From positions 270,001-302,000 of the forward strand of contig NZ_CP043315.1 of the NCBI RefSeq assembly GCF_008189285.1: 32,000 nucleotides of DNA. Reading direction: 5' to 3'. The DNA comes from Candidatus Saccharimonadota bacterium (lineage in GTDB: Bacteria > Pseudomonadota > Alphaproteobacteria > CAJXXZ01 > 1604HC). Below the pieces are notes generated by a model. That model was not told the DNA's origin, did not search any database, and worked only from the letters and a program-made list of their open reading frames with translations. Positions 4,906 through 31,009 of this stretch are shown one piece after another. The translations under genes and the position numbers were made by a program. Position 1 is the stretch's first letter; each line of letters opens with the position of its first letter.

Positions 4906-5179
4906 AGATTTTAGATTTTAGATTTTAGATTTTAGATTTTAGATTTTAGATTTTAGATTTTAGATTTTAGATTTTAGATTTTAGATTTTAGATTTTAGAT
5001 TTTAGATTTTAGATTTTAGATTTTAGATTTTAGATTTTAGATTTTTAGATTTTAGATTTTAGATTTTAGATTTTAGATTTTAGATTTTAGATTTTAGATT
5101 TTAGATTTTAGATTTTAGATTTTAGATTTTAGATTTTAGATTTTAGATTTTAGATTTTAGATTTTAGATTTTAGATTTT
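4906..5179. repeat. heptanucleotide microsatellite (AGATTTT)x39, with one unit carrying an extra T
   Basis: Counted directly. There are 20 units from 4906, and the 20th (5039..5046) is AGATTTTT. A further 19 units run from 5047 to 5179. No other substitution is visible. Confidence 0.95.
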
Positions 5180-6012
5180 AAAAGGTCATTGATCTAATAA
5201 TCTATACTATAGCTTCATGATTTAATCATCATAACATTTATTGTATAGTTTATTACATAATTGAGTTGTATTACAGAGTTATAAATTACATTGTAAAAAA
5301 TATTTAAGAATATTGTTTTGTTAAATTTGTGTTCGTATTGATAGTGATTTTACAAACAAAAAATCTAAACATTTAAGAGCATTGCTATTAAAATTATTTG
5401 AAAATTGCATAGCAAATTTCTGTTTAATTATATTTATACTGACTATTTATTTAAAAACTCAAAACTGTGTATAAATTCTACTTATTCTGTTGGTATTTGC
5501 TATTTATTGTACATTTAAAACATTATTTATTTAAATTTATTTAAAAATTAAAAAATCATATTTAATTGGCAGTTATTTATAGCATTTGAGTAAATAAATA
5601 TTCTTTTGCATATAAGTTTATCATTTCAGGAAAAATGAAAATGAATTTTAAGTAGATCAAAAGAGAATCAATTAAGAAAGATAAAAATGAATTTTGCAGG
5701 ATTAGTTTGCAGAATTGTTATATAAAATCAAATTAATTGAATGTCACATAAAATCAAAATTGACTGAAATATTGCATAAAATGTATAAAATCATAAATAT
5801 TTCTTGAAAGCATTTTGACGAAAGAATGAAATATTTCTAGAATAAATTAAAAGATGGCTAATAGCAAAAGAAAAAATAACAAGAGTTGTAAATTCAATGA
5901 AATTACCAAATTGTTTTCAACAATATGCAAATTTTTAACAGTATTTGCTTGTAAAATTTAATAAATTGAATGGAAGTTTGTATGAAATGAATTTGTAATT
6001 TTCATAGATTTA

Positions 6013-6110
6013 AAAAAGCTGAACAACCTTGCAAAAAAAATCAATAATTTTTTATAAATATTAAATAAGATCATAAATATCTCAAACTTCCATACCTTTA
6101 ATCTTAGAGG
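6013..6110. repeat. copy A of a ~97-bp imperfect direct repeat in the rplT-ychF spacer
   Basis: AAAAAGCTGAACAACCTTGCAAAAAAAATCAATAATTTTTTATAAATATTAAATAAGATCATAAATATCTCAAAC... aligns by eye with 6188..6284 at roughly four matches in every five positions. Confidence 0.7.
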
Positions 6111-6187
6111 CATTTGCTTGCAATGTTAAATGAGCCTTATGCAGATTGAGTAAAATTGCAGTAAATCAATAATTTTTATAAATTTCG

Positions 6188-6284
6188 AAAAAGCTGAATA
6201 ACTTTGAAAAGAAATCAATAATTTTTATAAATGTTAAATAAAATCATAAATATTTCAAATCTAAACAGCTTTAATTTTGTAGAT
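6188..6284. repeat. copy B of the ~97-bp imperfect direct repeat
   Basis: AAAAAGCTGAATAACTTTGAAAAGAAATCAATAATTTTTATAAATGTTAAATAAAATCATAAATATTTCAAATC... lies 175 bp downstream of copy A. A partial third copy (ATAAAATCATAAATATTTC) is at 5786..5804. Confidence 0.7.
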
Positions 6285-6501
6285 GATTTCTTATAATATT
6301 AAATGCAATTATAATTTTTTATAAAATTTCAATGAGATATCAATAATTTTCATAAATTGTAGAGAGAAAAATTGGCAAAAAAATCAATAATTCATAAATT
6401 GCAGAGAGAGTGCAAAGTAATTTTTATGGGTGAAAAGTATTAATTTCAGAATAAAGGTAATTTGATTTGATCAATGAGAGTATAATGAGTATAATGCTTT
6501 T

Positions 6502-8259: not shown

Positions 8260-8303
8260 TTTCTTTACAAACACTTGGCAAAATTAATCAAAATGGAGGA
8301 CGA
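8260..8303 (+). promoter_or_regulatory. conserved 5' module TTTCTTTACAA-N9-AAAATTAA-...GGAGG upstream of the 905-aa gene
   Basis: The same motif, with the same 9-nt internal spacing and the same distance to the ATG (44, 43 and 46 nt), is found upstream of the 1033-aa and 543-aa genes. Confidence 0.4.
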
Positions 8304-11021
8304 ATGAAATATAAAAATAAATTTTTATTGTCATTAGTAGTGCTATTAAGCGCGGATTGTATGAAAGGTAATCTTGAAAATAATCATATTGCCAGAGATT
8401 TAATGGAACAACTTTCAAAGACACAAGCTATGAATGCAATGAAAGCACATCAAGAAACAATTGATTCTATTCTTTTCATTAACCAAGGAGATTATTACTT
8501 AATTCAAGATGGTCATATGTACAAAGTTGACGATAGTTTGAAAAGTTCTATTTATGCAGATGCTACAGTAGCAAAAATTTCAGATGAAGTAAAAGCAAAA
8601 ATTACTGCAGGAGCAGTGGTTAACAGCGATAAAGAAGTAATTGATTCTGTTTTTGAATTTGTTAACAAAAAATCAACAGATGCTAAAATGAATTTATCTA
8701 ATTTAATGAACACTTTGTTAGAAGATGGGCTTTCTTCTGAAGATGATTTATTTGTTAGAGTTATTTCTGGATCTGAATTAAGCAACAGTGATGCTAATGC
8801 ATCCATTGATAGCTTAAACGATATTGATGAAGAGCATAAAAGTGAATTAAAAACATCTGTGTTGGTATCTGGAAATATTGATTATAAAAATAAGCATGAA
8901 GCATTGATTAGTGCGCAAAAAGAATTAGCACAATTTGCTGAAGACAACAGTGTTGCATTAAAAACTGCAATGAATAAAGCTGAAGCTGCTAAAGAAGAAT
9001 TAATTGAAAATGCAAGCAAAATCAGCGCTACATCTCATGAGATAAAATTAGCAAAACTTTATGCAGAGCAATTGAATATTATGAAAACTTATAAAGAGAA
9101 GATTGAATCTGATCAACGTAAGCTTAATTCTAAAGAAAATTCTGTGTTAGAGCTTAAAAGTGGTTCAGAGCGTGAAGCTGAAGAATTTAATCAAATTATG
9201 AGAAATGCTGTAGAAGCTGTAAGTATGATCAAAGCAATGCATAATGAATTAGATTTCTGGAAAACAAATGTTGGAGGAAGTGGAAGCGATAACCAAACAG
9301 CTAGAATGACTAGTTTTTACAACAAACTAAATGCAATGACAAACTTAATAGAGGTGTCAGGAATAGTTTATGCTAAAAATAATAGTGGTGAGTTAAATAG
9401 TTATGATCAATACAAAACAATGATTGAAGATCAAGACTTTATTAGCAAGATGAGCTCGCTTTCCATTGAAGGAGATAGCAATCCTATTTCAAAAGCTATA
9501 TATAATTTGTTGCAAATGACCAATTCATTAATAAAGTACCATGCTGCTTTCAACAGATCTCAATCTTTAGAATTTTCAGATTCAATAATTGAATTAAGCA
9601 GAGATTATTATAGAACTAATAGCAATGGAGACAAAGAGATTGAAATTGGAACTTTTGAATACATTGGTATCATGAGAGATGCGCAAAATAAAGATTACAC
9701 TTCCCAAGAAAATGATGCAGAGCTTATAGATCATGTAGAAAAAGCAATAAAAGTAGGGGTATCTTACGAAGAATTATTGCCTAGCGATGCTCTTGTTAAA
9801 GTTGATGCTGCATATAGACATATCCTAGATTCTGATAACACAGCAAAAGAAATAGAACTTGATGCAAAATTGATTGAACAATTAATGTTTGATGCAAATC
9901 AAGTTGTTGTAATAATAGATAATGCAGAAGTAATAATTGATTACAGCGATCTAATGATTACAAATGATGAGAAAGAAGAATTTTCGTATTTCCAGTATTC
10001 ATATGAAAGCGATGATGAAAAAGTAGAGCTTGATGAGAAAATTAGAGCAATTTTGATTAAAAAGCTTAAAGAGCATGCTTTAAGATCGACAGAAATCATG
10101 AAAATTGAAGCAAAAGAGTCTTGGGTTTCTATGAATGATACTATGGGAACACTAAATCAAGCTATTAACAATAACCTTGAAAAATCTCAAGATGATGATG
10201 GAAAATATACAAATATAGCCATGTATTACATTGCTGAACTTTCTGGGTTTGATGGTTCTAATTATGAAGAATTAAATAATGCTGTTAAAGATCATTTGAC
10301 AAGTCTTGGCTATGATGGGATAAACAAACCACAAGACATAGGAATCAGATGGAATTTTATACTTGGTGATCTTTACAATGAAGACTTATTGAATGTTTAT
10401 AAAAATGCTGTAAATGTTAAAAAAGCTTTAGCTGCATTAAAAATTGAGAAAGAAAAAGAAGAGCCTAGCGCTGAATTGAAACAAGATATCGAAGGTAAAA
10501 AAATAGAAGCAGAAAAATATAGCAATGCATTGCATGATTTTGTATATACTCCTGAGCCAGGAAATGGAAATGATCTAAATATTCCTGAAATCTTATGGAG
10601 TGGAGAAGGCGCCGCTTCTAGCTCAGTTAGCATATCATCAGGAAATAGAACAAGAGCAGGTTCTGCTAGATCAATATTTGATGAATATGTAGGGTATGGA
10701 AGATTCCAAGAAGGAATTGACAATTCTCTAAAAACATTAACAAATCCATTCGCAGGCGCAGCTTATTCTGCAGAGAAAACTGTACATACAAACTCTTTGG
10801 ATGCTCTTAATGCTGCAATTACAGAATTGGAAGCAAAGTTTAATGAAATAAATATTGATTCTGATGCATACAAATTTGAACTAGAGAAAAGCGCTGAATT
10901 GCATGCAGAAATAGATGTTCTTAATGTTGAAGTTAGTGCAAAATATCAAGATCAAGAAGATAAAGTTGCTGGATTGCAATCAGAATTAGATGCAATTCGT
11001 GAACAAATTAAAAATGCATAA
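8304..11021 (+). CDS. hypothetical large acidic, coiled-coil-rich secreted or surface protein
   Basis: A 905-aa uninterrupted ORF in a very AT-rich background, with GGAGG 4 nt upstream of the ATG. The N-terminus MKYKNKFLLSLVVLLSADC looks like a signal peptide. I recognise no family motif. Confidence 0.8.
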   Translation: MKYKNKFLLSLVVLLSADCMKGNLENNHIARDLMEQLSKTQAMNAMKAHQETIDSILFINQGDYYLIQDGHMYKVDDSLKSSIYADATVAKISDEVKAKITAGAVVNSDKEVIDSVFEFVNKKSTDAKMNLSNLMNTLLEDGLSSEDDLFVRVISGSELSNSDANASIDSLNDIDEEHKSELKTSVLVSGNIDYKNKHEALISAQKELAQFAEDNSVALKTAMNKAEAAKEELIENASKISATSHEIKLAKLYAEQLNIMKTYKEKIESDQRKLNSKENSVLELKSGSEREAEEFNQIMRNAVEAVSMIKAMHNELDFWKTNVGGSGSDNQTARMTSFYNKLNAMTNLIEVSGIVYAKNNSGELNSYDQYKTMIEDQDFISKMSSLSIEGDSNPISKAIYNLLQMTNSLIKYHAAFNRSQSLEFSDSIIELSRDYYRTNSNGDKEIEIGTFEYIGIMRDAQNKDYTSQENDAELIDHVEKAIKVGVSYEELLPSDALVKVDAAYRHILDSDNTAKEIELDAKLIEQLMFDANQVVVIIDNAEVIIDYSDLMITNDEKEEFSYFQYSYESDDEKVELDEKIRAILIKKLKEHALRSTEIMKIEAKESWVSMNDTMGTLNQAINNNLEKSQDDDGKYTNIAMYYIAELSGFDGSNYEELNNAVKDHLTSLGYDGINKPQDIGIRWNFILGDLYNEDLLNVYKNAVNVKKALAALKIEKEKEEPSAELKQDIEGKKIEAEKYSNALHDFVYTPEPGNGNDLNIPEILWSGEGAASSSVSISSGNRTRAGSARSIFDEYVGYGRFQEGIDNSLKTLTNPFAGAAYSAEKTVHTNSLDALNAAITELEAKFNEINIDSDAYKFELEKSAELHAEIDVLNVEVSAKYQDQEDKVAGLQSELDAIREQIKNA

Positions 11022-11173
11022 TTTAGCAATCTAATTGTTTATATTAAGTATTGGTAATATTAATAATGAGCGTTAGAAATCTAACATTTATATAAAATTA
11101 CAAAAACACCTTAAAGAGCTTGTAGAAATGCAGTGCTTATGCAATGAATTGAAAAGCTATAAAGTATTATCAT

Positions 11174-11216
11174 TTTCTTTGCAAGTATTATTTAAAATTA
11201 AATCAAAGGAATGGTA
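11174..11216 (+). promoter_or_regulatory. conserved 5' module TTTCTTTGCAA-N9-AAAATTAA-...AAGGA upstream of the IQ-motif protein gene
   Basis: See the alignment in the findings. The similarity to the 543-aa gene continues into the first 26 nt of coding sequence (ATGAAATATATCT[T/A]TTTAAGCATTG). Confidence 0.4.
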
Positions 11217-14200
11217 ATGAAATATATCTTTTTAAGCATTGTTGTCTTATTAATCTCAAACTCTCATATTGTGGCAGATGAAATAAATGATGATGAAATA
11301 TCACAAAATAAAATTGTAGAAAAAATCTATAAAAGAAAAATAAAACCAACTATTTCTAAAAAGAACAGTATAAAAAAAAGAAAATCAAGAAAATCTAAAC
11401 TTAAAGCCACAAAAAGAAGCAGAATAACTGGATCTAAAAGGCGAAAATTACCCGCAAAAAGAAGAAAGTCCTCTGCATCAAAATTGACCAAAAGATCATC
11501 AAGAAAAAGAGTTAGATTAAGTAGGGCAAAATATCCAATTGCAAAAAAACTTAATAAGATTAACTCTGTAGCTGTAAAGATTTCATATGAAGATATATAT
11601 AAAAATGAAATTAGAAAATTACAAGAAAAAGAAAATGAAATTAGAAATAAATTAATTGCTAGTAAAAATAATCATATGCTAGAAATAAAACTTAACAAAG
11701 AATTGACTAGCCTGCATTTGAAAACGATGCATTACAAATTATTGTTAAACAAACCCAATGATATATCAATGCAAATAAAGCAATTATCAAGCATGCAAAT
11801 GGATATTAGAAACAAATTTGACAAAGAAAAAGATCAAGCACAGAAAGATAAGCTGAGAAAAGAATTGCATGCCATTAGTGTGAATATAAATCATTATAAA
11901 TCACTATTAAATAGAAATAGATCTATGAAATCTGATTCATTATCAAGAAGAGATATGTCCGTAGAAGTTAATTTCAGGCCAAAAATTAACGAACCAAAAA
12001 GCACTGAGGGCGCAACTATATTGATGACAAAAGAACAAACTATATCACGTCCTGAAGAAATTGCAATTATTGCCCCAAAAGATTCTGTTGCATTAATAGA
12101 ATCATCAAGTAAAATTGAAAATCCTGCTAGAGACTCAGTTGTTTTAAAAAATAGCGAGCAAACAATTGTTAATCCAAAGAAATTAGTTGAGCTTGAAAGC
12201 GCATCATCAACAATAACAAATAAAGAAGATAAAAAAGAAGCGATCACCTTAGTGGAAAAAGAAGAGTATATAAGTAGAGATGAGCATAAAAAAAAGACTG
12301 TTGAATTATCTGGACATATGCATGAGATTAAATCAGAACACACAAAGCCTAATTTGATTGAGAAGGGGTCGCAGTTAGCAATTCCTCAATTTAAGGAAGA
12401 GGTAAAACTATTTGCGAATGATAAATCAATTACATCTCCAATAAGGGAAGAGCAGAAAAAAATAATTGAAGAAGAAAAACAACAACAATCAGCAACAAAG
12501 ATTCAAGCTTTATTTAGAGGAAGAAGTGCTAGAAAAGCAACTGAAGTAAAGAAAGTTGCTGAAGCAGAAGAGAAAAAGCTAGAAGAAGCAAGATTGAGTG
12601 AAGAAGAAAATAGAAAATTAATTAAATCTGAAGAGAAAATAGATAGAGAAGAAGGAGAAAAAAAGATTCGACTTTTATTGGAAAAATTAGTTGAAATAAA
12701 AGATATAAGAGCTACAACAGACAAAAGAAAAGAAAGGAATAAAAAATCAGAAGAAGAAAAAGAAACAAGAAAAGAAGTTGAAATAGTAGAGAGAAAGGAA
12801 ATAGAAGAACTAAAAGCTAAAGAAGAAAGAGCAAGAAAAGAAGTAGAAGCAAGATTAGATACAGAAGAAAAAGCAGCAACAAAGATTCAAGCTTTATTTA
12901 GAGGAAGAAGTGTAAGAAAAGCAACTGAAAAAACAACCCCAAAAGATATTGAAAGGAATAGCTCATCTGCCCCTTTAACTCCAAGAAAATTAAGTTTTGA
13001 TTCCTCAGACGATAGATCTTCAAGAGCTGAATCAGTCGATCATACACCTGGGCATGAAGATAAAAGAATATCAAGAGGATCAGATAGATCAACGTTTTCT
13101 TCAGATTCAACTTCTTCAAAAGGTTCAAAAAGATCATTAACAAAAGAGGAAATTGCAAAAAAAAATCAAAGCGCGAAGGTTGAAATAAACAATAATATAG
13201 AAGGGCAAAGAAGAAATGAAGCAATAACAAGAAAAAAGAACAAAGATATAAATAATAGAAAAAAAATAAAAATAAAACAAAACAAAATTAGAGCTAATAA
13301 TAGAATTAAACAAAATAAATTAAGAAAAGAAAAAGATCTGAGATTGTTCGGAAGAAAAATAGCAGAAGAAACTAATAGAAAACAAAAAGAATTAGAGAAA
13401 ATTAGAAAAGATAAACTAGATATTAAGCGGCTCAGTGAAGAAGAAAGTCGCACAAGGTCTGAATTGCAAAAAGAAGAAAGTTCTGGAAGATTAATGATAA
13501 AAGATTCTAAAGATAAAAATACATGGAAAGAAATTGCATTAAGTGAGAGTGATAATAACACTGAAGGACATGAAAATGATGATGAAAGCATGATTTCTGA
13601 AGAAATAACTCAAATTGAAAAAACTCTTGATCAGTTGAATGGAGAAAAGAAATCTATAGAAAATGGCATAAGAGAGTTTAAAAATAAAGTTGTGTTAAAA
13701 AATAAAGAAAAAGCAGAGTTAGCAAAAGATTTAAAAAAATTAAATGAATTGAAGAAAAAATCAGAAGAAAAATCTAATGAAAAAACACTTCCATTTGGAA
13801 GAACAAATCTTCAAAAGCTTAATGAAGCAGTTAAAAAACATGGAGGGTCAAATGCTGTAATTTTAATTGCAAGCATTGGAGAAAAAATTACAAGTTTAGG
13901 AAACGAAATAGTAGAATTAGAAAAAAACAAAAAAAAGCATGAAGAGAAATTAATTGCAGTGGAGAATGAAATTAAATCTAAACAAAAAGAATTGCAAACA
14001 AAGAAAAGCTTGCTTGAAAGAATAAAAAATGCCTTTAAAGCAGCGAGATCAAAAGTTATCCCTAGTAAAAGCAAAAAAAATAACAATCGAAATGCAGGAT
14101 CATCTGTAATTCCTTATTATGATGAAAGTCGTGAGGTATATTTATTGGATCCACAAATAACTCCTTACACATCTGAAAGAAGAAAAAATAATGACACAAA

Positions 14201-14318
14201 ATCTAGATCACCTTCTGGAAGTAGGTCAAATTCATTAAACTCTCCTTCTAAGTCTTCTTCTGCCAAAAATAAAACTCCACCTAAGTCAAAATATGCACAT
14301 ACAATATATTCTTATTAA
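11217..14318 (+). CDS. hypothetical secreted, hyper-charged protein with two IQ motifs
   Basis: A long ORF (1035 aa from the ATG at 11211). I prefer the ATG at 11217 because MKYIFLSIVVLLIS... then aligns with the paralogous MKYIYLSIAALLIS... and sits 6 nt after AAGGA. The order is signal peptide, a K/R/S polybasic tract, coiled-coil-like segments, and IQxxxRGxxxR twice. Confidence 0.85.
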   Translation: MKYIFLSIVVLLISNSHIVADEINDDEISQNKIVEKIYKRKIKPTISKKNSIKKRKSRKSKLKATKRSRITGSKRRKLPAKRRKSSASKLTKRSSRKRVRLSRAKYPIAKKLNKINSVAVKISYEDIYKNEIRKLQEKENEIRNKLIASKNNHMLEIKLNKELTSLHLKTMHYKLLLNKPNDISMQIKQLSSMQMDIRNKFDKEKDQAQKDKLRKELHAISVNINHYKSLLNRNRSMKSDSLSRRDMSVEVNFRPKINEPKSTEGATILMTKEQTISRPEEIAIIAPKDSVALIESSSKIENPARDSVVLKNSEQTIVNPKKLVELESASSTITNKEDKKEAITLVEKEEYISRDEHKKKTVELSGHMHEIKSEHTKPNLIEKGSQLAIPQFKEEVKLFANDKSITSPIREEQKKIIEEEKQQQSATKIQALFRGRSARKATEVKKVAEAEEKKLEEARLSEEENRKLIKSEEKIDREEGEKKIRLLLEKLVEIKDIRATTDKRKERNKKSEEEKETRKEVEIVERKEIEELKAKEERARKEVEARLDTEEKAATKIQALFRGRSVRKATEKTTPKDIERNSSSAPLTPRKLSFDSSDDRSSRAESVDHTPGHEDKRISRGSDRSTFSSDSTSSKGSKRSLTKEEIAKKNQSAKVEINNNIEGQRRNEAITRKKNKDINNRKKIKIKQNKIRANNRIKQNKLRKEKDLRLFGRKIAEETNRKQKELEKIRKDKLDIKRLSEEESRTRSELQKEESSGRLMIKDSKDKNTWKEIALSESDNNTEGHENDDESMISEEITQIEKTLDQLNGEKKSIENGIREFKNKVVLKNKEKAELAKDLKKLNELKKKSEEKSNEKTLPFGRTNLQKLNEAVKKHGGSNAVILIASIGEKITSLGNEIVELEKNKKKHEEKLIAVENEIKSKQKELQTKKSLLERIKNAFKAARSKVIPSKSKKNNNRNAGSSVIPYYDESREVYLLDPQITPYTSERRKNNDTKSRSPSGSRSNSLNSPSKSSSAKNKTPPKSKYAHTIYSY
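12501..12533 (+). other. IQ motif 1 (IQALFRGRSAR) within the 1033-aa protein
   Basis: An exact fit to the IQxxxRGxxxR consensus. The context SATKIQALFRGRSARKATE resembles neuromodulin AATKIQASFRGHITRKK. Confidence 0.7.
12885..12917 (+). other. IQ motif 2 (IQALFRGRSVR) within the 1033-aa protein
   Basis: An exact fit to IQxxxRGxxxR in the context AATKIQALFRGRSVRKATE. The DNA patch 12876..12929 is 52/54 identical to 12492..12545. Confidence 0.7.
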
Positions 14319-14411
14319 CTTGATTAATTATTATCCGTGATGAGGGAGAATAAAGTGAAAATTCCAAGGACAGCTCTTTTGTTTATTAGTTAAGCAAACT
14401 ATAATGTGCGC

Positions 14412-14996
14412 ATGAAGATATTCATAATTTTTGCTTTATGTATGTCTATTTCTGGGAAAAGTCTTTCTCAAGAATCGCATATTGTTTTTCTTGGTAAAAT
14501 TTTAGATTACCATTCGGATCATGATGAAATAAACTTGATTAATCAAAGAAATATTTCTCTGAATAAACTGAGGTTAGATTTTCCGCTTTTTGATTTATTT
14601 ATTTCTCAGAAAAATAAAACTTCTTTTGCAAAATGGTTTTATCATTTTTGCTCTTTGTCTATTATGAATTCGAGTAGAAAAAAACAAATGCAAGAAATTT
14701 ATAGCCTTATTAATATTTCTGTTGATGGATTTATTAATGGGGTCATGCAATTAAACTCTATTGATTGTAGCACTTTGTCAGATAATGCAAAAAATTGGAT
14801 TGATAGAGCGCAATTATGGATTAAAGCTTACAAAAAATTCGAAAAATCATATCAAGATAAATCTGGAAAGTTATATCAAAATAATAATCACGATATAACT
14901 AGAAAAATAAGTGAAAAGTCTTTTAAAAATAAATTTGAACAAAAAACAAATGAAAAGCTTGATGAGAAAAATTCTAAGAAAGTGGATGAAATATGA
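14412..14996 (+). CDS. hypothetical exported or membrane-anchored protein (possible reduced HemX/Mic60-like)
   Basis: The ORF has a hydrophobic N-terminus, MKIFIIFALCMSISGKSLSQ. Its stop overlaps the next gene's start (ATGA). The C-terminal ...LSDNAKNWIDRAQLWIKAYKKFEK resembles the end of mitofilin/HemX-type domains, but the match is weak. I prefer the ATG at 14412 over the track's GTG at 14406. Confidence 0.6.
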   Translation: MKIFIIFALCMSISGKSLSQESHIVFLGKILDYHSDHDEINLINQRNISLNKLRLDFPLFDLFISQKNKTSFAKWFYHFCSLSIMNSSRKKQMQEIYSLINISVDGFINGVMQLNSIDCSTLSDNAKNWIDRAQLWIKAYKKFEKSYQDKSGKLYQNNNHDITRKISEKSFKNKFEQKTNEKLDEKNSKKVDEI

Positions 14997-15733
14997 TTTT
15001 TAAAATAATATCTATAATATTGATTGTAATTACAATTAAAATATTTGATTTTATACCAATTCACATTAAAGTAGGAGATCTGAATTATAAATGCAATTTT
15101 TCTATCATAATTTTATTTGCGATGATGCTTTCTTGGATTATTTATTATTTTTGCAATTTAAAATATTGTATAAAATCCCACTGCAATAAATCTAAGCAAA
15201 GCAAGATGGAAAAACAAGAAATTGAAACAAATAAGAAAATAATTCAACAATCAATTGAAAATGTTTGCAAGATTTGTTTAAGCAATTATAATGATTTAAA
15301 TGGCCTAATAAGCGAAAATGATAAAAATGATAAAATTAATGAAGTTGAAAAAAGTTGCGCTCATAATAGAAGCATTTTAATTGATATGATTGATATGATT
15401 TGCAATGTTAATTTTCATAGTGCGAAAAATCTTGACTTATATATAAACGATAAATTATTTGAATTTATAGAAAAATCATATGAGTATTTAAGAAATAACA
15501 ATTACATTAAAGCGCAGGAAAGTTTAGAAAATTTGTATGATCATGTAAAAATATCGCCAAAAATTCATAATTATAAGTGCATTTATGAGAATTTATATGT
15601 TTGTTATATAGAAAATAAAGAATATGATAAATGTCAAAATATGTTAGATGATTTATATAAACGAAATGCAATTAATAAGGATCAATATGATGAAAAATGC
15701 AGAGGAATACTGAAGTATGGGAAAATTATATAA
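14993..15733 (+). CDS. hypothetical membrane protein, HemY_N-like N-terminus with a helical (TPR-like) C-terminus
   Basis: Two N-terminal hydrophobic helices flank IHIKVGDLNYKCNFS, compared with E. coli HemY VLIQTDNYNIETSV between its two TM helices. The C-terminal half is helical, with TPR-like Y/L/N spacing. Confidence 0.6.
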   Translation: MIFKIISIILIVITIKIFDFIPIHIKVGDLNYKCNFSIIILFAMMLSWIIYYFCNLKYCIKSHCNKSKQSKMEKQEIETNKKIIQQSIENVCKICLSNYNDLNGLISENDKNDKINEVEKSCAHNRSILIDMIDMICNVNFHSAKNLDLYINDKLFEFIEKSYEYLRNNNYIKAQESLENLYDHVKISPKIHNYKCIYENLYVCYIENKEYDKCQNMLDDLYKRNAINKDQYDEKCRGILKYGKII

Positions 15734-15859
15734 TAAGTCTAAATGCTAATCATGCTGTACAAAATATGCGAAATATGAAAAAATAATTTATTAGAAATCT
15801 TGTTATAAGATTTACTTGTAGGCTATTTTGTGTTCTAATTTACTTATTAAGGAGATTTT

Positions 15860-16387
15860 ATGAGTAGATTGCTTATGCCACGTTCTACAGCGCTGTGGTT
15901 ATTAAATAATACTAAATTAACATTGCAACAAATATCCAGTTTCTGCTCAATGTCCATTTTAGATCTAGATGTTATGAAGAGAGGATTTTCCGATTCTGCA
16001 TTACAAGAAAGCGACCCTGTTAGCAGAGGTCAGTTGTTATTGGAAGAAATAGAATTATGCGAAGAAAATCCAAGCAGGAAATTAAGCTTGAATGTTGTAG
16101 TAGAAGTTAAAAGTGAAATTAGGAAAATTCCATATAAATTAAAGAAGCAACTATCTAAATTTATTTCATGGATGCATAGAAATTATCCAGATTTGACAAA
16201 CAAAGAGATTGCAAAATTCTTTGGAGTAACGCAAAAAACTGTAGAAGATGTTGTGGATAATCCTAATTCATTTTTTGAAGCTTCAGACCCAATTTTAAAT
16301 GGAGTGTGTTCGAAAGAACATTTAAATGCTTTTATTGAAAAAGTAGAGCAAAATAGAGAAAAGGCTGCTAAGAAAAGTAAAAAATAA
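15860..16387 (+). CDS. DUF1013-family protein (alphaproteobacteria-restricted; annotated in some genomes as a cell-cycle regulator)
   Basis: MSRLLMPRSTALWLLNNTKLTLQQISSFC...DPVSRGQLLLEEIELCEENPSRKL...ISWMHRNYPDLTNKEIAKFFGVTQKTVE...DPILNGVC follows the conserved DUF1013 pattern (LMPKATAVWL..NT.L.F.QIA.FC, DP...GQLT.EEI..CE). AAGGAG lies 6 nt upstream of the ATG. Confidence 0.8.
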   Translation: MSRLLMPRSTALWLLNNTKLTLQQISSFCSMSILDLDVMKRGFSDSALQESDPVSRGQLLLEEIELCEENPSRKLSLNVVVEVKSEIRKIPYKLKKQLSKFISWMHRNYPDLTNKEIAKFFGVTQKTVEDVVDNPNSFFEASDPILNGVCSKEHLNAFIEKVEQNREKAAKKSKK

Positions 16388-16775
16388 TTAAATTATTGCA
16401 TTATTTAAAAGTAATTCTTAGAAATTATATTTCTTCTTGGATTTTCCTTCTTTTTATTCAATTTAGATATTTGAATTTCTTAAAATAACATTCATTTTAT
16501 TAATTATAAATCAAGAAATATAATTATATATGCACTAGAAGTATAACCAATGATTTCAGAATTAATGAAAAAATTATTTATCAATATTGCGCGATACACT
16601 ATTTAGATACAGCTGTTCTCTATTAGAGGTTGTATTTATTATATAAATTATTTTCATAAAAATTTACATTCAATGCTGCTTGCTAGCTCTATATTGCATA
16701 TTTATTTTTATATGAAGCTGATATAATCTAGGGAAATAGTGAAAAATACAAAAACCATGAAAGGTATAAATCAAA

Positions 16776-17300
16776 ATGCATGATTTTATATTGTTAACAA
16801 GTTCTTTTCTTGTAGGATCTATCCCATTTGGAAGGATTTGGTCTTTTTTGTTAGGGAAAAAAGATTTGAGAAATTGTGGATCAGGAAACATAGGAACAAC
16901 CAATGCTTTTAGGGTTAATGGAAAAGTTGTTGGAATTCTAACTGCTTTGTTTGATGTAGGGAAAGGATTTGCATGTTTGTTATTTCCTAATCCTGCTTTA
17001 TTTGGATCATGGATAGTAATTGGTCATATTTATGCACCATGGTCAGGTGGAAAAGGAGTCGCTGCATTTTTCGGAATATGTTTAGCAATTCTAAAATTTT
17101 ACGCACTAATACCTATGATTACATGGATCGCATTGGTTTATTGCAAAATTAGACCAACTTATGCTAGTTATGTAGCATTATTCATTATGTGTATTATTGC
17201 ATTTATTAAAGTTCAAGAGATTTTTATGTTAATAGCTTTGTTAAGTGTGGCAATTATATACAAACATATTGTTTCTGACCTATCCAAGAGATGCAGATGA
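16776..17300 (+). CDS. plsY: glycerol-3-phosphate acyltransferase PlsY
   Basis: A polytopic membrane ORF carrying the PlsY signature LVGSIPFGRIW...GSGNIGTTNAFRVNGK. Confidence 0.85.
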   Translation: MHDFILLTSSFLVGSIPFGRIWSFLLGKKDLRNCGSGNIGTTNAFRVNGKVVGILTALFDVGKGFACLLFPNPALFGSWIVIGHIYAPWSGGKGVAAFFGICLAILKFYALIPMITWIALVYCKIRPTYASYVALFIMCIIAFIKVQEIFMLIALLSVAIIYKHIVSDLSKRCR

Positions 17301-18406
17301 TAAAGTATGAACAGAATAATAATAAATTCAATAAAATTCTAACCGAAGAAGAAAAAATAGATTTTCTAAGAGTTATTAGGACGAAAAATATTGGCCCAAT
17401 TAGCTTTTTTCACTTGTTAAATACTCATAAAACTATAGATAAGGTAATTAAATTTTTAGAAACAAAACTTGAAGTTAAATCTAAAACATATGCTGTAGAA
17501 GAAATGAGAAAAATTCGTAATTATGGAGCTGATATTATATGTTTTTCAGAGCCAAATTACCCTATTTTATTACGTGAAATTAGAGATTGCCCTCCCGTTA
17601 TTTGCGCAAAAGGTGATTTGGGCATATTAAGTAGAGAGAAGCTTTTTGCAATTGCTGGGTCTAGAACATGCTCTGTACAAAGTCAAGTTATGACAAAAAG
17701 AATTACATCTGAATTAGGAGAAAATGGATACACTATAGTTTCAGGATTAGCTCGTGGAATTGATACATGCGCTCATCAGAATAGTTTAAATACTGGAACA
17801 ATTGCAGTTCTTGCAAATGGGATAGATCATGTTTACCCATCAGAAAATAAATCATTATACGAAAAAATTGCAATAAAAGGCGTTATATTATCAGAAGTAG
17901 AATTTGGAACAAAGCCATCTGCGCATTTATTCCCAAATCGAAATCGAATTATTGCTGGAATGAGTTTGGGAGTGTTAATTGCAGAAGCTAGTGTAAAATC
18001 TGGATCTCTAATTACTTCTCAATGTGCTCTAGAAAATGGTCGAGATGTTTTTGCTATACCTGGATGCCCGCTTGATCCTCGTTCGCGTGGTGCAAATAAA
18101 TTGATTAAACAAGGAGCTGCTTTAGTAGAATTTATTCACGATATTACAAATGCATTTGAAGATTTTTCTCTCAAAGAGCCAGTTGAGAGCTATATTCCAG
18201 AAATAAAATACGATTTCTCTGAGAAGCAACTATCTGATTATAGCGAGAAATTATTAGATATGATTGGATTTTTCCCAATTTCGATAGAATTACTTATTAA
18301 TAAAATGGATATTCCGATCAGTACGGTTAGAGCGCTGCTTGCTCAGCTTGAAATCGAAGGGAAAATATCGCATTCTTGGGGAAATAAAGTTTCATTGCGA
18401 AGATAA
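17291..18406 (+). CDS. dprA: DNA-processing protein DprA/Smf
   Basis: The DprA core motifs are present: GSRTCS...SGLARGIDTCAH...GTIAVLANGIDHVYPSEN...FPNRNRIIAGMS...AEASVKSGSLITSQCALENGRDVFAIPG. It overlaps plsY by 10 nt. Confidence 0.9.
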   Translation: MQMIKYEQNNNKFNKILTEEEKIDFLRVIRTKNIGPISFFHLLNTHKTIDKVIKFLETKLEVKSKTYAVEEMRKIRNYGADIICFSEPNYPILLREIRDCPPVICAKGDLGILSREKLFAIAGSRTCSVQSQVMTKRITSELGENGYTIVSGLARGIDTCAHQNSLNTGTIAVLANGIDHVYPSENKSLYEKIAIKGVILSEVEFGTKPSAHLFPNRNRIIAGMSLGVLIAEASVKSGSLITSQCALENGRDVFAIPGCPLDPRSRGANKLIKQGAALVEFIHDITNAFEDFSLKEPVESYIPEIKYDFSEKQLSDYSEKLLDMIGFFPISIELLINKMDIPISTVRALLAQLEIEGKISHSWGNKVSLRR

Positions 18407-18582
18407 TGTAATTCGCAAATAAATTTTCTTTACAAGTGATTTATGAAAATAAATATTAACATGGAAAATTCATTGTATAGTATAAATTTGCATAAATAAA
18501 TATTTCTATGAAAATGATTGGTGAAAATATCAATGTAAAAAATAGCATTGTTTTATGTTGCTTGCTTTTAGCGTTTAGTATT

Positions 18583-18656
18583 TATATTTCTATCGATTTC
18601 ATTTGGCTGCAGCTTTATTTTATATTTCTATCGATTTCATTTGAATGCAGTTTTAT
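18583..18656. repeat. tandem duplication of a ~36-38-bp unit (TATATTTCTATCGATTTCATTTGRMTGCAGYTTTAT)
   Basis: The copies at 18583..18618 and 18621..18656 differ at 3 positions. They lie in the convergent intergenic region between dprA and the 543-aa gene. Confidence 0.8.
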
Positions 18657-18781
18657 GTTAGATAAATATTTCTGTTAAAGATTTATGATGAGCTTAATCT
18701 CTCAATCTACTTCCATTTTTACAATGTTTTTTAAATTATTTCTTTTTTCTAAGCTCATTTCACGCTTCAGTAAGTTTATTA

Positions 18782-20413
18782 CTAGATGTCATTTTCATCA
18801 GAATCTTTATAATTACCAGACATCATACGTTGCCTAATCAGTGCCTTTCTCATTTTTTCTTCAAATTCGCTTTTTGTTTCTTTCGCTTTCTTTAATTTGA
18901 AGTTTCCTTTTCTTATTTCTGCGAACAAATCCGCTCTGCTATCTTGATCTTCACTTAAAGGCATTGAAGCTTTAGACAAGCCTTTTATTCCTTCTTTAGG
19001 AAGTGCTGGGGCATCAGGAATTGCTCCAGTTTTAGGCGCAGGAGGAGGTGTTGGAATTGCTCCAGTTTCAGATGCAGGAGTTTCGTCAAAAGCTATTTCT
19101 CCCATTGATAATTTATCAGCTCTTTTTTCTGCAGCAAGATCAAGAGCTTTTCTTTTTTCTCTGCCTTTTTCTTCAAGCTCTATCAGAAAACTCGCTTTAG
19201 TTGAATTTCCAGATGTTGCTTTAGACAAGCCTTTTATCCCTTCTTTAGGAAGTGCTGGGGCATCAGGAATTGCTCCAGTTTTAGGCGCAGGAGGAGGTGT
19301 TGGAATTGCTCCAGTTTTAGGCACAAGAGGAGGTGTTGGAATTGCTCCAGTTTCAGATGCAGGAGTTTCGTCAAAAGCTATTTCCCCCATTGATAATTTA
19401 TCAGCTCTTTTTTCTGCAGCAAGATCAAGAGCTTTTCTTTTTTCTCTGCCTTTTTCTTCAAGCTCTATCAGAAAACTCGCTTTAGTTGAATTTCCAGATG
19501 TTGCTTTAGACAAGCCTTTTATCCCTTCTTTAGGAAGTGCTGGGGCATCAGGAATTGCTCCAGTTTCAGATACAGAAGTTTGAAGTGCTGCATTAGTTGA
19601 ATTGTCTCCTGCTATTTTAGGAATTGAAAAATAATCATCATCTACATTAGTTGAATTGTCTGCTGTTTTTTTAGGTGAATTCAACGAAGGTGCATTTATG
19701 CTTCCTTTTGCTGATCTTTCAATTTCGTTCATCTCTTGAGAAGCATTTTGTTCGATTGCACTTCTCTTGCTATGTTCTTCTATTAAAAATGCTGAGGAAT
19801 TTTCTAGAATATTTTTAGCTTTATTAGTTGCAAATTGAGTGCTTTTAATTTTTGATTCAACAACAAATAATCTATTTTCCAATTCCACTTTTTCTTTTGC
19901 TGTTAATTTTGTGTTGTTTGTCAATTTTGTTGTTAACGCCATTTTCTCTGCATTCATGCTTCTTAGATCAGTCATATTTTTGTCATAATCTTTAGATAAT
20001 TGGTCATAATAAGAAACTGTTGCGCTTTTTGTTTTTGCAGATGATGCAGATGATCTTGAAGTTGGTCTGAAGCTTCTTCTTGCAATTCGTCTTCCAGATC
20101 TAGTTGCGCTTCTTCTAAATACAGGCTTGCGAGATCTTGAAATTCTTCTTTTAGCAGCTCTTCTTGATTTGGAAGTAACTTTCCTTCTTTTAGCAGCGGA
20201 TTTTCTTCTTGATTTAGCAGCGGATTTTCTTCTTGATTTGGAAGTAACTTTCTTTCTAGATTTTCTTTTTGTTTTTTTAAACGATTTATCATCGCTTTTT
20301 TTTATTTCAGTGTGAACAGGCTTTCCCTCTACAATACTCATGTTAACTTCTTTTGCATCAGCATATGTATTAGAAATCAATAAAGCGGCAATGCTTAAAT
20401 AGATATATTTCAT
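18782..20413 (-). CDS. hypothetical secreted protein: signal peptide, polybasic tract, coiled coil, proline-rich tandem repeats, C-terminal WH2/connector/acidic (WCA-like) tail
   Basis: A 543-aa ORF with AAGGAG 7 nt upstream of the ATG. The N-terminus MKYIYLSIAALLISNTYA|DA looks like a Sec signal peptide. The C-terminus ADLFAEIRKGNFKLKKAKETKSEFEEKMRKALIRQRMMSGNYKDSDENDI carries the WCA-like tail. Confidence 0.9.
   Translation of the reverse strand: MKYIYLSIAALLISNTYADAKEVNMSIVEGKPVHTEIKKSDDKSFKKTKRKSRKKVTSKSRRKSAAKSRRKSAAKRRKVTSKSRRAAKRRISRSRKPVFRRSATRSGRRIARRSFRPTSRSSASSAKTKSATVSYYDQLSKDYDKNMTDLRSMNAEKMALTTKLTNNTKLTAKEKVELENRLFVVESKIKSTQFATNKAKNILENSSAFLIEEHSKRSAIEQNASQEMNEIERSAKGSINAPSLNSPKKTADNSTNVDDDYFSIPKIAGDNSTNAALQTSVSETGAIPDAPALPKEGIKGLSKATSGNSTKASFLIELEEKGREKRKALDLAAEKRADKLSMGEIAFDETPASETGAIPTPPLVPKTGAIPTPPPAPKTGAIPDAPALPKEGIKGLSKATSGNSTKASFLIELEEKGREKRKALDLAAEKRADKLSMGEIAFDETPASETGAIPTPPPAPKTGAIPDAPALPKEGIKGLSKASMPLSEDQDSRADLFAEIRKGNFKLKKAKETKSEFEEKMRKALIRQRMMSGNYKDSDENDI
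18887..18934 (-). other. candidate WH2 (G-actin-binding) motif ADLFAEIRKGNFKLKK
   Basis: It matches the WH2 pattern LLxxIxxGxxLKK(V/A) with one extra residue before LKK. Compare WAVE (RSVLLEAIRKGIQLRKV) and N-WASP (ALLDQIRQGIQLKSV). Confidence 0.65.
18968..19567 (-). repeat. near-identical in-frame tandem repeats (249 bp, 285 bp, and a partial third of ~60 bp) encoding proline-rich and helical modules
   Basis: Units begin at 18971, 19220 and 19505. Units 1 and 2 differ by 2 substitutions plus a 36-bp indel that adds one more TGAIPTPPxxPK sub-repeat. Confidence 0.9.
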
Positions 20414-20459
20414 TACTATTCTCCTTTTATTTTAATTTTAAATATGATTTGCAAAGAAA
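20414..20459 (-). promoter_or_regulatory. conserved 5' module (reverse complement: TTTCTTTGCAA-N9-AAAATTAA-...AAGGAG) upstream of the 543-aa gene
   Basis: This is the third occurrence of the motif at the same distance from the start codon. Confidence 0.4.
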
Positions 20460-29183: not shown

Positions 29184-30629
29184 TCAATTAACTGAAGGGT
29201 TGTGAGAAATTTTTACTCTACAGAATGCAGAAACAACTGTTCTCCATTTATCATTTTCACTTAAGGTATTGAATTCTTTTTTGCTTGTTAAATAAGATTT
29301 GATCAACTGCTCATCTTTGAATGCTTTGTTATCAAATTTCATAATTTCCATTTTAGCTCCAAATGTAAATTTATTTAAAGGCATAGCAAATCCAGTGGAA
29401 ATAATATTTGATTTCGCATGAATTGTTGAATCTTTAGCATCTTTCCATTCTGTTTTTCTGTCTGAATACATGTATGAAGCGTAAATCTCCAAGCCTTCCA
29501 TTGATCCTGAAGGAATTGTAAATGCAACAGTAGGAGAAACAACATACCCTCCATTTGCTTTGTCATGAATTTGATTGTCAAATTTCACACCTTTGATTTT
29601 ATTATTATGAAAATCATCAGAATAAGATTGAATTTTTTTATCAGCAATTAATCCATAGCTTAATCCAAATTTCACAAATTTATAGCCAATATTATTTCCT
29701 AATGTAAATCCTTTAACATCATTCATTTTAACTGCATCTACTTCATATCTTTTTGCATAACCAAAAGTAGCATAAGAGCAGTTTGTGAAATTACCTTTTT
29801 TAGCATTCCATTTTATACCAGCTCCTAAATGATTTTTCATAGAATCATCATTTAACTTATCATTTTCATTAATTTTAGCAAAAGAGTATCCGCCTTTATT
29901 TGGGTGATTAGGTGTGTAACTTAATGCGGCTACAACATTATTTTCCTTGTTGTTAATAAATTTCTTTGCCTTGATCATTATTTTCATGGAAGTTGCAGTA
30001 TTAGTATTAATTCTCTCATTTGTCATTACATTAGGAGCAAGTATCTCGTCTGACATGGCATACAAGTTTGTTGTTTTGCTTATAATGCCACAACTCAAAG
30101 GAGCGAGCTTCTTGTCAGCTCCATAAGTGTAACCAGCTCTAGCTGACAATTTTAATTTCGTTTGTCTGAAATAATTTTTCACATATAAGCTTGCTTGACT
30201 TACAGAAAACTTCTCAGGATTTGCTTTAATGGCAAATTGAACACCAATTTTCATATTTCCTGTTATTTTTTGCAAAGCAATACCTATTTTTGCATTAGAA
30301 AATTTTAGATTATCAAATGGATCTTTGATTTTTGATTTTTTATCTTTAGGTGACCAATTTTTTTTATCACCTTCAGACCAAACAATTTGATCTTGATCTG
30401 AAAATAAATGAGTTGATAAAATTTCTACATTTCCAGCAATATTGAAAGGGGCTTTACCTCTGTAATCATATATATCGCTTTCATGAAATGGAGATTCTTC
30501 ATTTGAATTTGAGTTATTACTCTCTTTCTTTGAAGTATTGCTTTGTGATTTAGGAGTTTTTTGATTGCTCTTATCAATGCTTTTTTCTGCATTTACACAT
30601 GCAATAGCTAATAATAAATAAACTAACAT
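29184..30629 (-). CDS. putative beta-barrel outer-membrane protein (porin-like)
   Basis: A 481-aa ORF with the signal peptide MLVYLLLAIACVNA|EKS. There are many short alternating hydrophobic/polar strands ending in aromatic residues (GYTYGADKK, FTLGNNIGYKFVKFGLSYGLI, GLEIYASYMYSD, FTFGAKMEIMKF). I recognise no family signature. Confidence 0.55.
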   Translation of the reverse strand: MLVYLLLAIACVNAEKSIDKSNQKTPKSQSNTSKKESNNSNSNEESPFHESDIYDYRGKAPFNIAGNVEILSTHLFSDQDQIVWSEGDKKNWSPKDKKSKIKDPFDNLKFSNAKIGIALQKITGNMKIGVQFAIKANPEKFSVSQASLYVKNYFRQTKLKLSARAGYTYGADKKLAPLSCGIISKTTNLYAMSDEILAPNVMTNERINTNTATSMKIMIKAKKFINNKENNVVAALSYTPNHPNKGGYSFAKINENDKLNDDSMKNHLGAGIKWNAKKGNFTNCSYATFGYAKRYEVDAVKMNDVKGFTLGNNIGYKFVKFGLSYGLIADKKIQSYSDDFHNNKIKGVKFDNQIHDKANGGYVVSPTVAFTIPSGSMEGLEIYASYMYSDRKTEWKDAKDSTIHAKSNIISTGFAMPLNKFTFGAKMEIMKFDNKAFKDEQLIKSYLTSKKEFNTLSENDKWRTVVSAFCRVKISHNPSVN

Positions 30630-30739: not shown

Positions 30740-31009
30740 CTAATTTTGATGCATTAAGTGAATTGGAGTTCTTGATGATTGAGTTCTGCCCAAAATCACT
30801 TTTTCTCTGTTGTAATGTTTTTTGAATTTTGCATGATTTTTACATTTTTTATTGCGAAGTTTTTTGTATTTGCTTTTTACAATTTGCTTGTGTTTTGTAA
30901 TATAAAATTTATTTCCATCTAAAGTCATTGTTTTTTCCTCACAAATATTTATGAAAGTTTTTGCATTTATCATAGATAGAGACAAAAGCATTAAAAATAA
31001 TCTATTCAT
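30740..31009 (-). CDS. hypothetical small basic secreted protein
   Basis: An 89-aa ORF with AAGGAG 7 nt upstream of the ATG. The signal-peptide-like N-terminus is MNRLFLMLLSLSMINA|K. The mature part is Lys-rich and has 2 Cys. Confidence 0.5.
   Translation of the reverse strand: MNRLFLMLLSLSMINAKTFINICEEKTMTLDGNKFYITKHKQIVKSKYKKLRNKKCKNHAKFKKHYNREKVILGRTQSSRTPIHLMHQN

Follow-up and report, generated by a model that had tools for sequence, protein, structure and literature searches.

The stretch of DNA analysed here raises the question of how a bacterium with a genome of only 628 kb might act on the cytoskeleton of the cell in which it lives. The window, a stretch of 32,000 nucleotides (nt) from contig NZ_CP043315.1 with a G+C content of 28%, comes from Candidatus Cytomitobacter indipagum. 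Between positions 8260 and 20459 it contains three genes for putatively exported proteins, here called A, B and C, whose products are identical to proteins of that organism. C. indipagum is an endosymbiont of the marine diplonemid Diplonema aggregatum and lies free in the cytoplasm, with no host membrane around the cell (PMC5845003). The symbionts associate with the host mitochondrion and enter it, and a 2026 study by volume electron microscopy stated the bacterial factors involved to be unknown (PMC13462478).

An initial annotation, made from the letters of the window, had proposed that the three genes form a co-regulated family of exported effectors directed at host calmodulin and actin, with Rickettsiales and their type IV secretion, type I secretion and autotransporters as the baseline. 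Cytomitobacter belongs to the family Holosporaceae in the order Holosporales, not to Rickettsiales, so this baseline was the wrong one. The present analysis suggests, with confidence that we would call even, that B and C face the host and share one export-and-tether cassette, B carrying two IQ motifs and C carrying proline-rich repeats followed by a WH2 motif.

Genes B and C share a front end

Gene B (11217-14318, plus strand) encodes an orphan protein of 1033 amino acids (aa) with an isoelectric point of 9.9, and its start at 11217 agrees with the NCBI annotation. Gene C (FZC35_01160; 18782-20413, minus strand) encodes a protein of 543 aa with an isoelectric point of 10.0, which carries the name 'WH2 domain-containing' in UniRef. 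Comparison of the two genes revealed a contiguous block of ~95 nt with ~80% nucleotide identity, extending from -45 to +50 and then decaying to background, which is the signature of a duplicated front end. The proteins align across ~110 residues (BLASTP E=1e-7) and follow the same layout, in which MKYI(F/Y)LSI..LLISN...A|D is succeeded by an acidic spacer and then by a polybasic tract. The common signal-peptide and polybasic cassette described for B and C in the initial annotation was thus recovered at both the protein and the nucleotide level.

The leaders were judged by inspection, on the basis of their n, h and c regions, hydropathy, an A|D cleavage site and a net-negative early mature region. 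In A, B and C alike, inspection revealed a K2 n-region, a maximal 12-residue Kyte-Doolittle average of 2.0-2.8 and first 18 mature residues with a net charge of -2 to -4, the putative cleavage sites in the set being IVA|D, TYA|D and LSA|D. The hydrophobic core of the B and C leaders, 10-13 residues long, is too short for a membrane anchor, since Kyte-Doolittle averages above 1.6 occur in few or no windows of 19 residues, and hydropathy analysis of A, B and C gave no further hydrophobic segment.

The putative signal peptide of B, MKYIFLSIVVLLISNSHIVA|DE, is encoded at 11217-11276 (plus strand), with the acidic spacer at 11277-11321 and the polybasic tract (aa 36-113) at 11322-11555 on the same strand. 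In C, the corresponding elements on the minus strand are the putative signal peptide MKYIYLSIAALLISNTYA|DA at 20360-20413, a near-neutral spacer at 20285-20359 and the polybasic tract (aa 44-128) at 20030-20284. Lysine and arginine account for 37 of the 78 residues of the tract in B and for 39 of the 85 in C, and aspartate and glutamate are absent from both. Across the first 18 mature residues, the net charge is -4 for B and -2 for C. Sec export is sensitive to charge near the cleavage site and tolerates an acidic start of the mature protein; the acidic spacer between leader and polycationic tract looks like a buffer. From this anatomy, B and C would be two lineage-specific paralogues, one front end, composed of a 5' untranslated element, a ribosome-binding site, the Sec signal peptide, the acidic spacer and the polybasic tract, having been copied onto different eukaryote-mimicking back ends. 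The reading as a whole, of which this is one part, stands for us about halfway between acceptance and rejection.

A short upstream element precedes A, B and C

The pattern TTTCTTTRCAA-N9-AAAATTAA, referred to here as the 5' module, occurs exactly three times in the window, each copy lying 43-46 nt ahead of the ATG of a long open reading frame (ORF) with a good Shine-Dalgarno sequence. The copies are located at 8260-8287 (plus strand; TTTCTTTACAA-N9-AAAATTAA, beginning 44 nt before the ATG of A), at 11174-11201 (plus strand; beginning 43 nt before the ATG of B at 11217) and at 20432-20459 (minus strand; beginning 46 nt before the ATG of C at 20413), and the outer ends of the A module (8260) and the C module (20459) are the limits of the stretch studied. 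The pattern had no match in 100 shuffles of the window, a comparison in which the pattern itself derives from the same three sites.

A non-circular test was obtained by scoring the window with the consensus of B and C, made of the 32 fixed positions identical between the two. Upstream of A, a score of 24/32 was obtained 52 nt from the ATG; the corresponding distances are 51 nt in B and 54 nt in C. This score was reached at one other position only among ~64,000 in the window, the upstream regions of the other 19 genes scored at most 20/32, and the estimated chance of such a match upstream of A at the right offset is roughly 0.005. The claim that three genes carry the same 5' module therefore stands. 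From its sequence and position, the element may be a common regulatory site, and we hypothesize that A is co-regulated with B and C. Apart from the module, A shares with B and C only the opening 'MKY' and is not a protein paralogue of either. The 'family' of three proposed earlier is thus reduced to the B and C paralogues, with A linked to them by the cis element.

A metagenome scan for the module returned at least 120 scattered matches; among the matches listed, none precedes an ORF at the right distance, and no relatives were found. The other leader-bearing ORFs of the window (14406, 29184-30629 and 30740-31009) do not carry the module. An anti-Shine-Dalgarno hairpin or RNA switch formed by UUUCUUU and AAAGGAG was considered and rejected, as only the B copy folds in this way and no fold is conserved (z = +2.05, -0.03 and +0.34).

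A degenerate module with two mismatches (23/32 to the B/C consensus) lies at 18425-18452 (plus strand), downstream of dprA and with no long ORF behind it; it may be a relic, perhaps of another family member. The region 18417-18656 also holds, after this degenerate module, a 38-bp x 2 tandem repeat and then a 56-aa hydrophobic ORF.

Gene B carries two IQ motifs in a predicted helix

Two cassettes of gene B, ATKIQALFRGRSARKATE (aa 426-443; 12492-12545, plus strand) and ATKIQALFRGRSVRKATE (aa 554-571; 12876-12929, plus strand), are recognized by the Pfam IQ model. The protein scores 33.7 bits, and the two copies taken alone score 22.2 and 23.8 bits, both above the gathering score of 20.3. Within them, IQALFRGRSARKA and IQALFRGRSVRKA fit the IQxxxRGxxxR consensus, applied as a regular expression. 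Among the sequences of solved structures, the best match is the IQ motif of Sp17 (AALKIQAAFRGH), and the B motif is also very close to AATKIQASFRGH, which we take to be the IQ motif of neuromodulin.

Both motifs are held by a continuous alpha-helix of 159 residues predicted by AlphaFold2 for aa 409-567 (12441-12917, plus strand), with predicted local distance difference test (pLDDT) values of 80-96, and the 101 residues that separate the motifs are 60% E/K/R. The arrangement 'IQ - ER/K helix - IQ' read from the sequence by the initial annotation is thereby supported. The helix comes from a single-sequence model and charged sequences easily give a helix, hence the support that it lends is modest, and a stable single helix and a coiled coil are not distinguishable in such a model.

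The two IQ cassettes are sharp-edged copies of 54 nt, identical at 52/54 nt and embedded in completely unrelated flanks, so the second copy is recent. Exactly the IQ motif was copied, in frame. The remainder of B is helical, Ser-rich and Lys/Asn-rich low-complexity sequence, with a low-complexity Ser/Lys-rich C-terminus; searches of Pfam and NCBIfam returned no domain match in it, and no catalytic domain was recognizable.

Gene C carries proline-rich repeats and a WH2 motif

Behind the cassette, the C protein continues with a helical segment, proline-rich repeats and the C-terminus DSRADLFAEIRKGNFKLKKA-KETKS-EFEEKMRKALIRQRMM-SGN-YKDSDENDI. The proline-rich repeat region (aa 284-483; 18965-19564, minus strand) comprises six 12-residue TGAIPxxPxxPK units within a 285-bp tandem repeat that is 98% identical, and gives a weak FH1-like match in Pfam (Drf_FH1, 25.2 bits, below the gathering score of 40). 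A single WH2 motif, not a tandem array, follows (DSRADLFAEIRKGNFKLKKA, aa 491-510; 18884-18943, minus strand). The Pfam WH2 model scores 19.7 bits on the whole protein and 23.1 bits, which is the gathering score (E 5.7e-5), on the isolated tail. Next come a possible central (C-region-like) amphipathic helix (EFEEKMRKALIRQRMM, aa 516-531; 18821-18868, minus strand) and the short acidic C-terminus YKDSDENDI (aa 535-543; 18785-18811, minus strand), which contains no tryptophan.

A filter-free HMMER search with C against 1.84 billion representative proteins gave three hits, namely C itself, a compositional match to a proline-rich pufferfish protein, and a WH2 protein of Cardinium hertigii (AWN81445.1 / WP_162534056.1; P0004). 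The last, aligned to C453-542 with an E value of 3.2e-8, is the only significant match of C that is neither self nor compositional, and this sequence match is the strongest evidence for the WH2 of C. A profile built from the WH2 tails of C and the Cardinium protein finds the WH2 motifs of N-WASP (E 1.2e-5), WAVE2 and Cobl in PDB, and the WH2 of C (DSRADLFAEIRKGNFKLKKAKE) is nearest to the WAVE2 motif.

Like C, the Cardinium protein belongs to an intracellular symbiont and presents polyproline, then a WH2 of the same flavour (DTRQALFAQIREGGVTLRKV versus DSRADLFAEIRKGNFKLKKA), a helix, which in C is only possible, and an acidic end. Unlike C, it contains the [polyproline + WH2] unit in three copies and a full acidic tail with tryptophan (NNEWDD), it has neither signal peptide nor polybasic tract, and it comes from a different phylum (Bacteroidota) with an insect host. 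The likeness extends over ~70 residues only and may stem from convergence or common mimicry instead of orthology. The Cardinium protein P0004 itself appears to be a complete VCA-type mimic, with a textbook central helix and acidic tail. The literature searched mentions it only in passing, with the remark 'WH2 ... may function as adhesins' (PMC4007549).

Overall, the predicted tail of C is best described as proline-rich repeats followed by a single WAVE-like WH2, possibly a C helix and a truncated acidic end, and is not a full WCA. From the 'proline-rich repeats with a WCA-like tail' of the initial annotation, the repeats and the WH2 are retained and a central helix is plausible; the tryptophan that marks Arp2/3-activating acidic tails is missing.

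Possible routes of export and exposure to the host

No beta-barrel, autotransporter or other bacterial domain was found in the products of A, B and C with Pfam and NCBIfam, which agrees with the earlier remark that a beta-barrel domain is lacking. The initial annotation had seen in this leader-only design an unusual export logic. Type II secretion moves Sec-exported periplasmic proteins across the outer membrane, so that a candidate second export step exists in Cytomitobacter. The Cytomitobacter genome paper describes a Sec system in reduced form and a modified type VI system without inner tube and outer-membrane component. It also lists 106 predicted signal-peptide proteins and a few remnant genes for type II secretion/type IV pili, which its authors propose to be a hybrid system (bioRxiv 10.1101/719211).

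Leader-only export also has a precedent in Holosporaceae, as Sec-type periplasmic proteins of Holospora end up outside the cell. An 89-kDa periplasmic protein of Holospora obtusa, which has two actin-binding motifs, is found there (PMC9866348; PMC11909080), and the leader-bearing 63-kDa protein PRP1 is secreted into the host nucleus, where it binds host DNA (PMC9866348). Trafficking of H. obtusa is actin-based (PMC11909080). In Rickettsia, RickA is located on the bacterial surface, its route being unknown (PMC11077975). With the Holospora precedent and the retained type II secretion/type IV pilus genes, the leader-only design of B and C is less odd than had been claimed.

Since the symbiont lies naked in the host cytoplasm, host actin and calmodulin would be directly within reach of a protein that it exposes on its surface or secretes. 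From their motifs, host actin is a plausible target of C and host calmodulin a plausible target of B. That the two proteins are exposed to the host and cooperate there is put forward purely as a hypothesis.

Distribution and origin of the three genes

Homologue searches with A, B and C covered 5.8 billion proteins, with a word pre-filter to 8000 candidates and low-complexity queries; in this pre-filtered search the three proteins match only themselves. The filter-free HMMER search, which covered C only, gave no C orthologue among the 1.84 billion representative proteins. A contig scan anchored on dprA returned a single match, a Rhodospirillales metagenome-assembled genome at 37% identity, from a collection that apparently includes neither C. 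indipagum nor C. primus.

The G+C content at third codon positions (GC3) of A, B and C is 0.165-0.19, which coincides with the lower limit of the values for housekeeping genes (0.18-0.26) or falls just short of it, so the three genes are resident and not recent imports. A recent horizontal transfer from the host was considered and rejected, the same values giving no compositional sign of it. The raised G+C content of C is due to second codon positions, that is, to its amino-acid composition.

Comparison with known systems

RickA and the Wolbachia protein Wbm0076 resemble C in that a proline-rich region is followed by a WH2 and an acidic end at the C-terminus, with a central element in between that C possibly also has, and both come from cytosolic or intracellular alphaproteobacteria. 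They differ from C in that the acidic-region tryptophan is present and a polybasic tract absent, and RickA has no Sec signal. In Wbm0076, polyproline and a VCA region are combined with a hydrophobic N-terminal segment on which membrane localisation depends (PMC9980815). In the filter-free HMMER search, C showed no homology to RickA or Wbm0076 outside the motif. C would work in the manner of the WASP-family mimics RickA, Wbm0076, ActA and the Cardinium protein. Given the missing homology and the lack of a tryptophan-containing acidic tail, C is not filed, on its predicted architecture, as a member of that group.

The 89-kDa protein and PRP1 of Holospora come from the same family as B and C, Holosporaceae, and are likewise periplasmic or leader-bearing. 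Unlike B and C, they belong to an infectious-form life cycle in ciliate nuclei that is absent from Cytomitobacter. Database searches gave no similarity of C to Holospora proteins, the 89-kDa protein and PRP1 being compared by description only.

Listeria ActA, Burkholderia BimA and Vibrio VopL/VopF, all of them displayed on the surface or injected, join proline-rich repeats to WH2-like elements, as C does. In ActA, a Gram-positive protein with a cleavable Sec leader, the membrane anchor is C-terminal and the Arp2/3-activating region N-terminal. BimA belongs to the trimeric autotransporters, and VopL/VopF, substrates of type III secretion, carry three WH2 motifs plus a dimerisation domain. According to Pfam and NCBIfam, C has no anchoring or secretion domain of the ActA, BimA or VopL/VopF types.

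For B, the comparison is with Legionella SidJ/SdjA, in which an IQ-type helix binds host calmodulin (PMC6858067). In these type IV substrates the IQ helix switches on a catalytic domain. B and SidJ are alike only in the IQ helix; B has two canonical IQ motifs, an E/K/R-rich helix and a Sec leader, and no catalytic domain. As modelled, the helix of B looks more like a myosin lever arm or neuromodulin. The front end composed of a Sec leader and a polybasic tract was not found in any of the comparator systems.

Bacterial WASP-family mimics (RickA, ActA, Wbm0076) and the exploitation of calmodulin (SidJ) are well known. To our knowledge, no such factor has been described for Holosporales or for any diplonemid symbiont, and the terms actin, WH2 and calmodulin are absent from both the Cytomitobacter genome paper and a 2026 preprint on these symbionts. 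Diplonemids are among the most abundant groups of marine heterotrophic protists. B and C are clonable candidates for the handling of the host cytoskeleton by a 628-kb endosymbiont, in a system that is in culture. Their modular architecture suggests how a reduced genome may build host-interaction proteins, by combining one export-and-tether cassette with different short linear motifs. The interest of the pair is limited by the species-specific, orphan nature of the genes and by an Arp2/3-activating signature that is incomplete.

A proposed mechanism for B and C

Starting from the motifs and the sequence anatomy described above, we infer a mechanism step by step, the Sec export of B and C from inspection of their leaders. 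Guided by the leader, both proteins would pass SecYEG, the export site being kept Sec-compatible by the acidic stretch of ~18 residues with which the mature proteins begin. The proteins would then reach the cell surface or the host cytosol via residual type II secretion/type IV pilus machinery or by an unknown route, comparable to that of the Holospora proteins. There, the polybasic tract would retain them on an anionic surface, which could be a host membrane or the lipopolysaccharide of the bacterium itself. Surface-clustered C would bind host G-actin, possibly profilin-actin, and promote local actin assembly or tethering. An Arp2/3-independent mode based on the WH2 and the proline-rich region would be equally possible, and classical Arp2/3 activation is the least secure step, because the tail of C contains no tryptophan. 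B, with two IQ motifs ~128 residues apart on a helix of ~24 nm, would recruit host calmodulin or calmodulin-like light chains. In this scheme, A would be an unrelated acidic, helical, exported protein having only the short upstream element in common with the other two.

A bolder version of the scheme would make the front end an undescribed display or delivery module that places interchangeable WH2 and IQ motifs on the surface without an autotransporter, type III or type IV system, actin built by C serving, as a force or a tether, to position the bacterium against the mitochondrion and push it in. We consider this version improbable. If true, Holosporales, in which trafficking based on actin has been observed but no nucleator identified, would have in C their first candidate actin-assembly factor.

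Several points weigh against a host-facing role of B and C on a common cassette. The entire analysis was performed in silico. The duplication of the IQ motif is recent and is not a sign of long-term selection. As A, B and C are orphans, conservation is unusable as an argument for their function, and database searches found no counterpart of the three in C. primus or Nesciobacter, in which WH2-only or IQ-only matches would miss significance in databases of this size. These two symbionts share the cytoplasmic, mitochondrion-associated lifestyle. By analogy with Holospora, the outer-membrane route of B and C is a candidate one, and passage of a polycationic tract of ~80 residues through Sec is energetically awkward. 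In C, prolines run to PPP at most, a weak basis for binding profilin. The reading of EFEEKMRKALIRQRMM as a central helix was made by eye, and the segment was aligned to a known C region in none of the profile and PDB searches. The acidic stretch has four acidic residues, with tryptophan absent from the entire protein. The internal 95-residue repeats of C were examined as extra WH2 motifs and rejected, having no Pfam match. Finally, a sigma-70 promoter was not called at the module by a promoter scan that is uninformative in AT-rich DNA (57 hits found versus 73 expected), and a check by hand of its -35-like TTGCAA/TTTACA gave no -10 element at a workable spacing.

Alternative explanations

Envelope-spanning proteins likewise begin with a hydrophobic segment and continue with long charged helices or a proline-rich spacer, and the motif evidence consists of short matches of 20-24 bits. 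B and C might then be periplasmic or inner-membrane envelope residents, TolA- or TonB-like, with coincidental IQ and WH2 matches and no role in the host, which would fit the lack of an outer-membrane translocation domain in Pfam and NCBIfam and the prominent periplasm seen in electron microscopy of the symbiont (PMC5845003). We regard this as rather unlikely. Each IQ copy exceeds the curated Pfam threshold, the WH2 tail of C finds a bona fide WH2/VCA protein (E 3.2e-8) and, via the profile, N-WASP and WAVE2, and neither B nor C matched TolA, TonB or any other envelope domain. The succession of proline-rich repeats, a WH2 and a terminal acidic stretch in WASP/WAVE order is unlikely to arise by chance, and these are long open frames in AT-rich DNA. 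The length of the frames also bears against the idea that A, B and C are fast-evolving, functionless orphan ORFs made of drifting repeats, the shared module being the trace of a recent segmental duplication. Such an origin would account for the absence of orthologues, for the recent internal copies (the 285-bp repeat, 98% identical, and the 54-nt IQ cassette, identical at 52/54 nt) and for the similarity of B and C as a contiguous block of ~95 nt. It is nonetheless highly improbable, because reading frames that stay open for 3.1 kb, 2.7 kb and 1.6 kb at 28% G+C, each with a good Shine-Dalgarno sequence, cannot be accidental, and they have been retained in a 628-kb genome under strong deletion pressure. 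Moreover, their motifs match curated models, C has its Cardinium match, and A, unrelated as a protein, has the module at the same offset.

Two further explanations keep a role in the host and assign it differently. The order of a proline-rich region, a WH2, a short helix and an acidic end is that of VCA proteins, and the WH2 of C is nearest to that of WAVE2. The segment MRKALIRQRMM of C also resembles ILSRRIAVEY, which we take to be the central motif of WAVE, in the WAVE1 sequence. C could on these grounds be a classical WASP/WAVE-type nucleation-promoting factor, similar to RickA, that activates host Arp2/3 to build branched actin for motility, positioning or mitochondrial entry, and the use of actin for trafficking by Holospora would be in line with this (PMC11909080). 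C, however, has no tryptophan at all. The tryptophan of the acidic region matters in nucleation-promoting factors, W280A reducing the toxicity of Wbm0076 (PMC9980815), and the acidic stretch of C has only four acidic residues. A literature search for actin, Arp2/3 and calmodulin in diplonemids gave nothing usable, so that a host Arp2/3 complex is not established, and we judge this assignment unlikely. The polybasic tract might instead be a host-targeting or membrane-crossing signal (nuclear or nucleolar, similar to a mitochondrial presequence, or cell-penetrating) and not a surface tether, B and C then acting at a host organelle. The absence of acidic residues, the KRRK/RRKS clusters and the R/S/A-rich stretches favour such a signal, as do the entry of the symbionts into the mitochondrion by factors stated to be unknown (PMC13462478) and the secretion of the DNA-binding PRP1 of Holospora (PMC9866348). 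The tract, however, is not at the extreme N-terminus of the mature proteins but is preceded by 15-25 acidic or neutral residues, and the partners of WH2 and IQ motifs are cytosolic, which makes a targeting signal quite improbable.

Gene A and other features of the window

Gene A (FZC35_01125; 8304-11021, plus strand) encodes an orphan protein of 905 aa with an isoelectric point of 4.6, predicted to be mostly helical and carrying the Sec-type leader MKYKNKFLLSLVVLLSA|DC. Its assignment as a lipoprotein was rejected, since LSAD|C has an aspartate at -1 and is not a lipobox. The AlphaFold2 model of A, with a mean pLDDT of 38, is unusable.

Directly after B, two small ORFs with a mutual overlap of 4 nt occupy 14406-15733 (plus strand); they carry no module and have no significant family match. 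One encodes 196 aa with a leader-like N-terminus; the product of the other, 246 aa long, has hydrophobic segments at its N-terminus and matches TPR weakly. Together with B, the two may make up an operon and be co-transcribed. Two more leader-bearing ORFs with no family match and no 5' module lie on the minus strand near the end of the window, one of 481 aa at 29184-30629 (MLVYLLLAIACVNA...) and a basic one of 89 aa at 30740-31009 (MNRLFLMLLSLSMINA...).

The other genes of the window are housekeeping genes: pheS, trxA, rpmI, rplT, ychF, trcR, plsY, dprA, glyQS, a 5'-3' exonuclease gene, tyrS, groES/EL and rnhB. The trcR-family gene, named after the transcriptional cell-cycle regulator TrcR, is located at 15860-16387, between the B and C loci (Pfam, 64 bits). 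Scanning the window against Rfam and for tRNA genes gave no matches. Just upstream of ychF, at 5983-6392, a repeat of ~25-70 nt is present in three dispersed copies with a spacing of ~170 nt (families D6, D7, D9 and D10). The spacer between rplT and ychF is free of genes over 1.8 kb, a large non-coding stretch for a 628-kb genome, and has a G+C content of ~19%. It contains a microsatellite at 4906-5180, in which the 7-nt unit AGATTTT is repeated 39 times with 99% matches.

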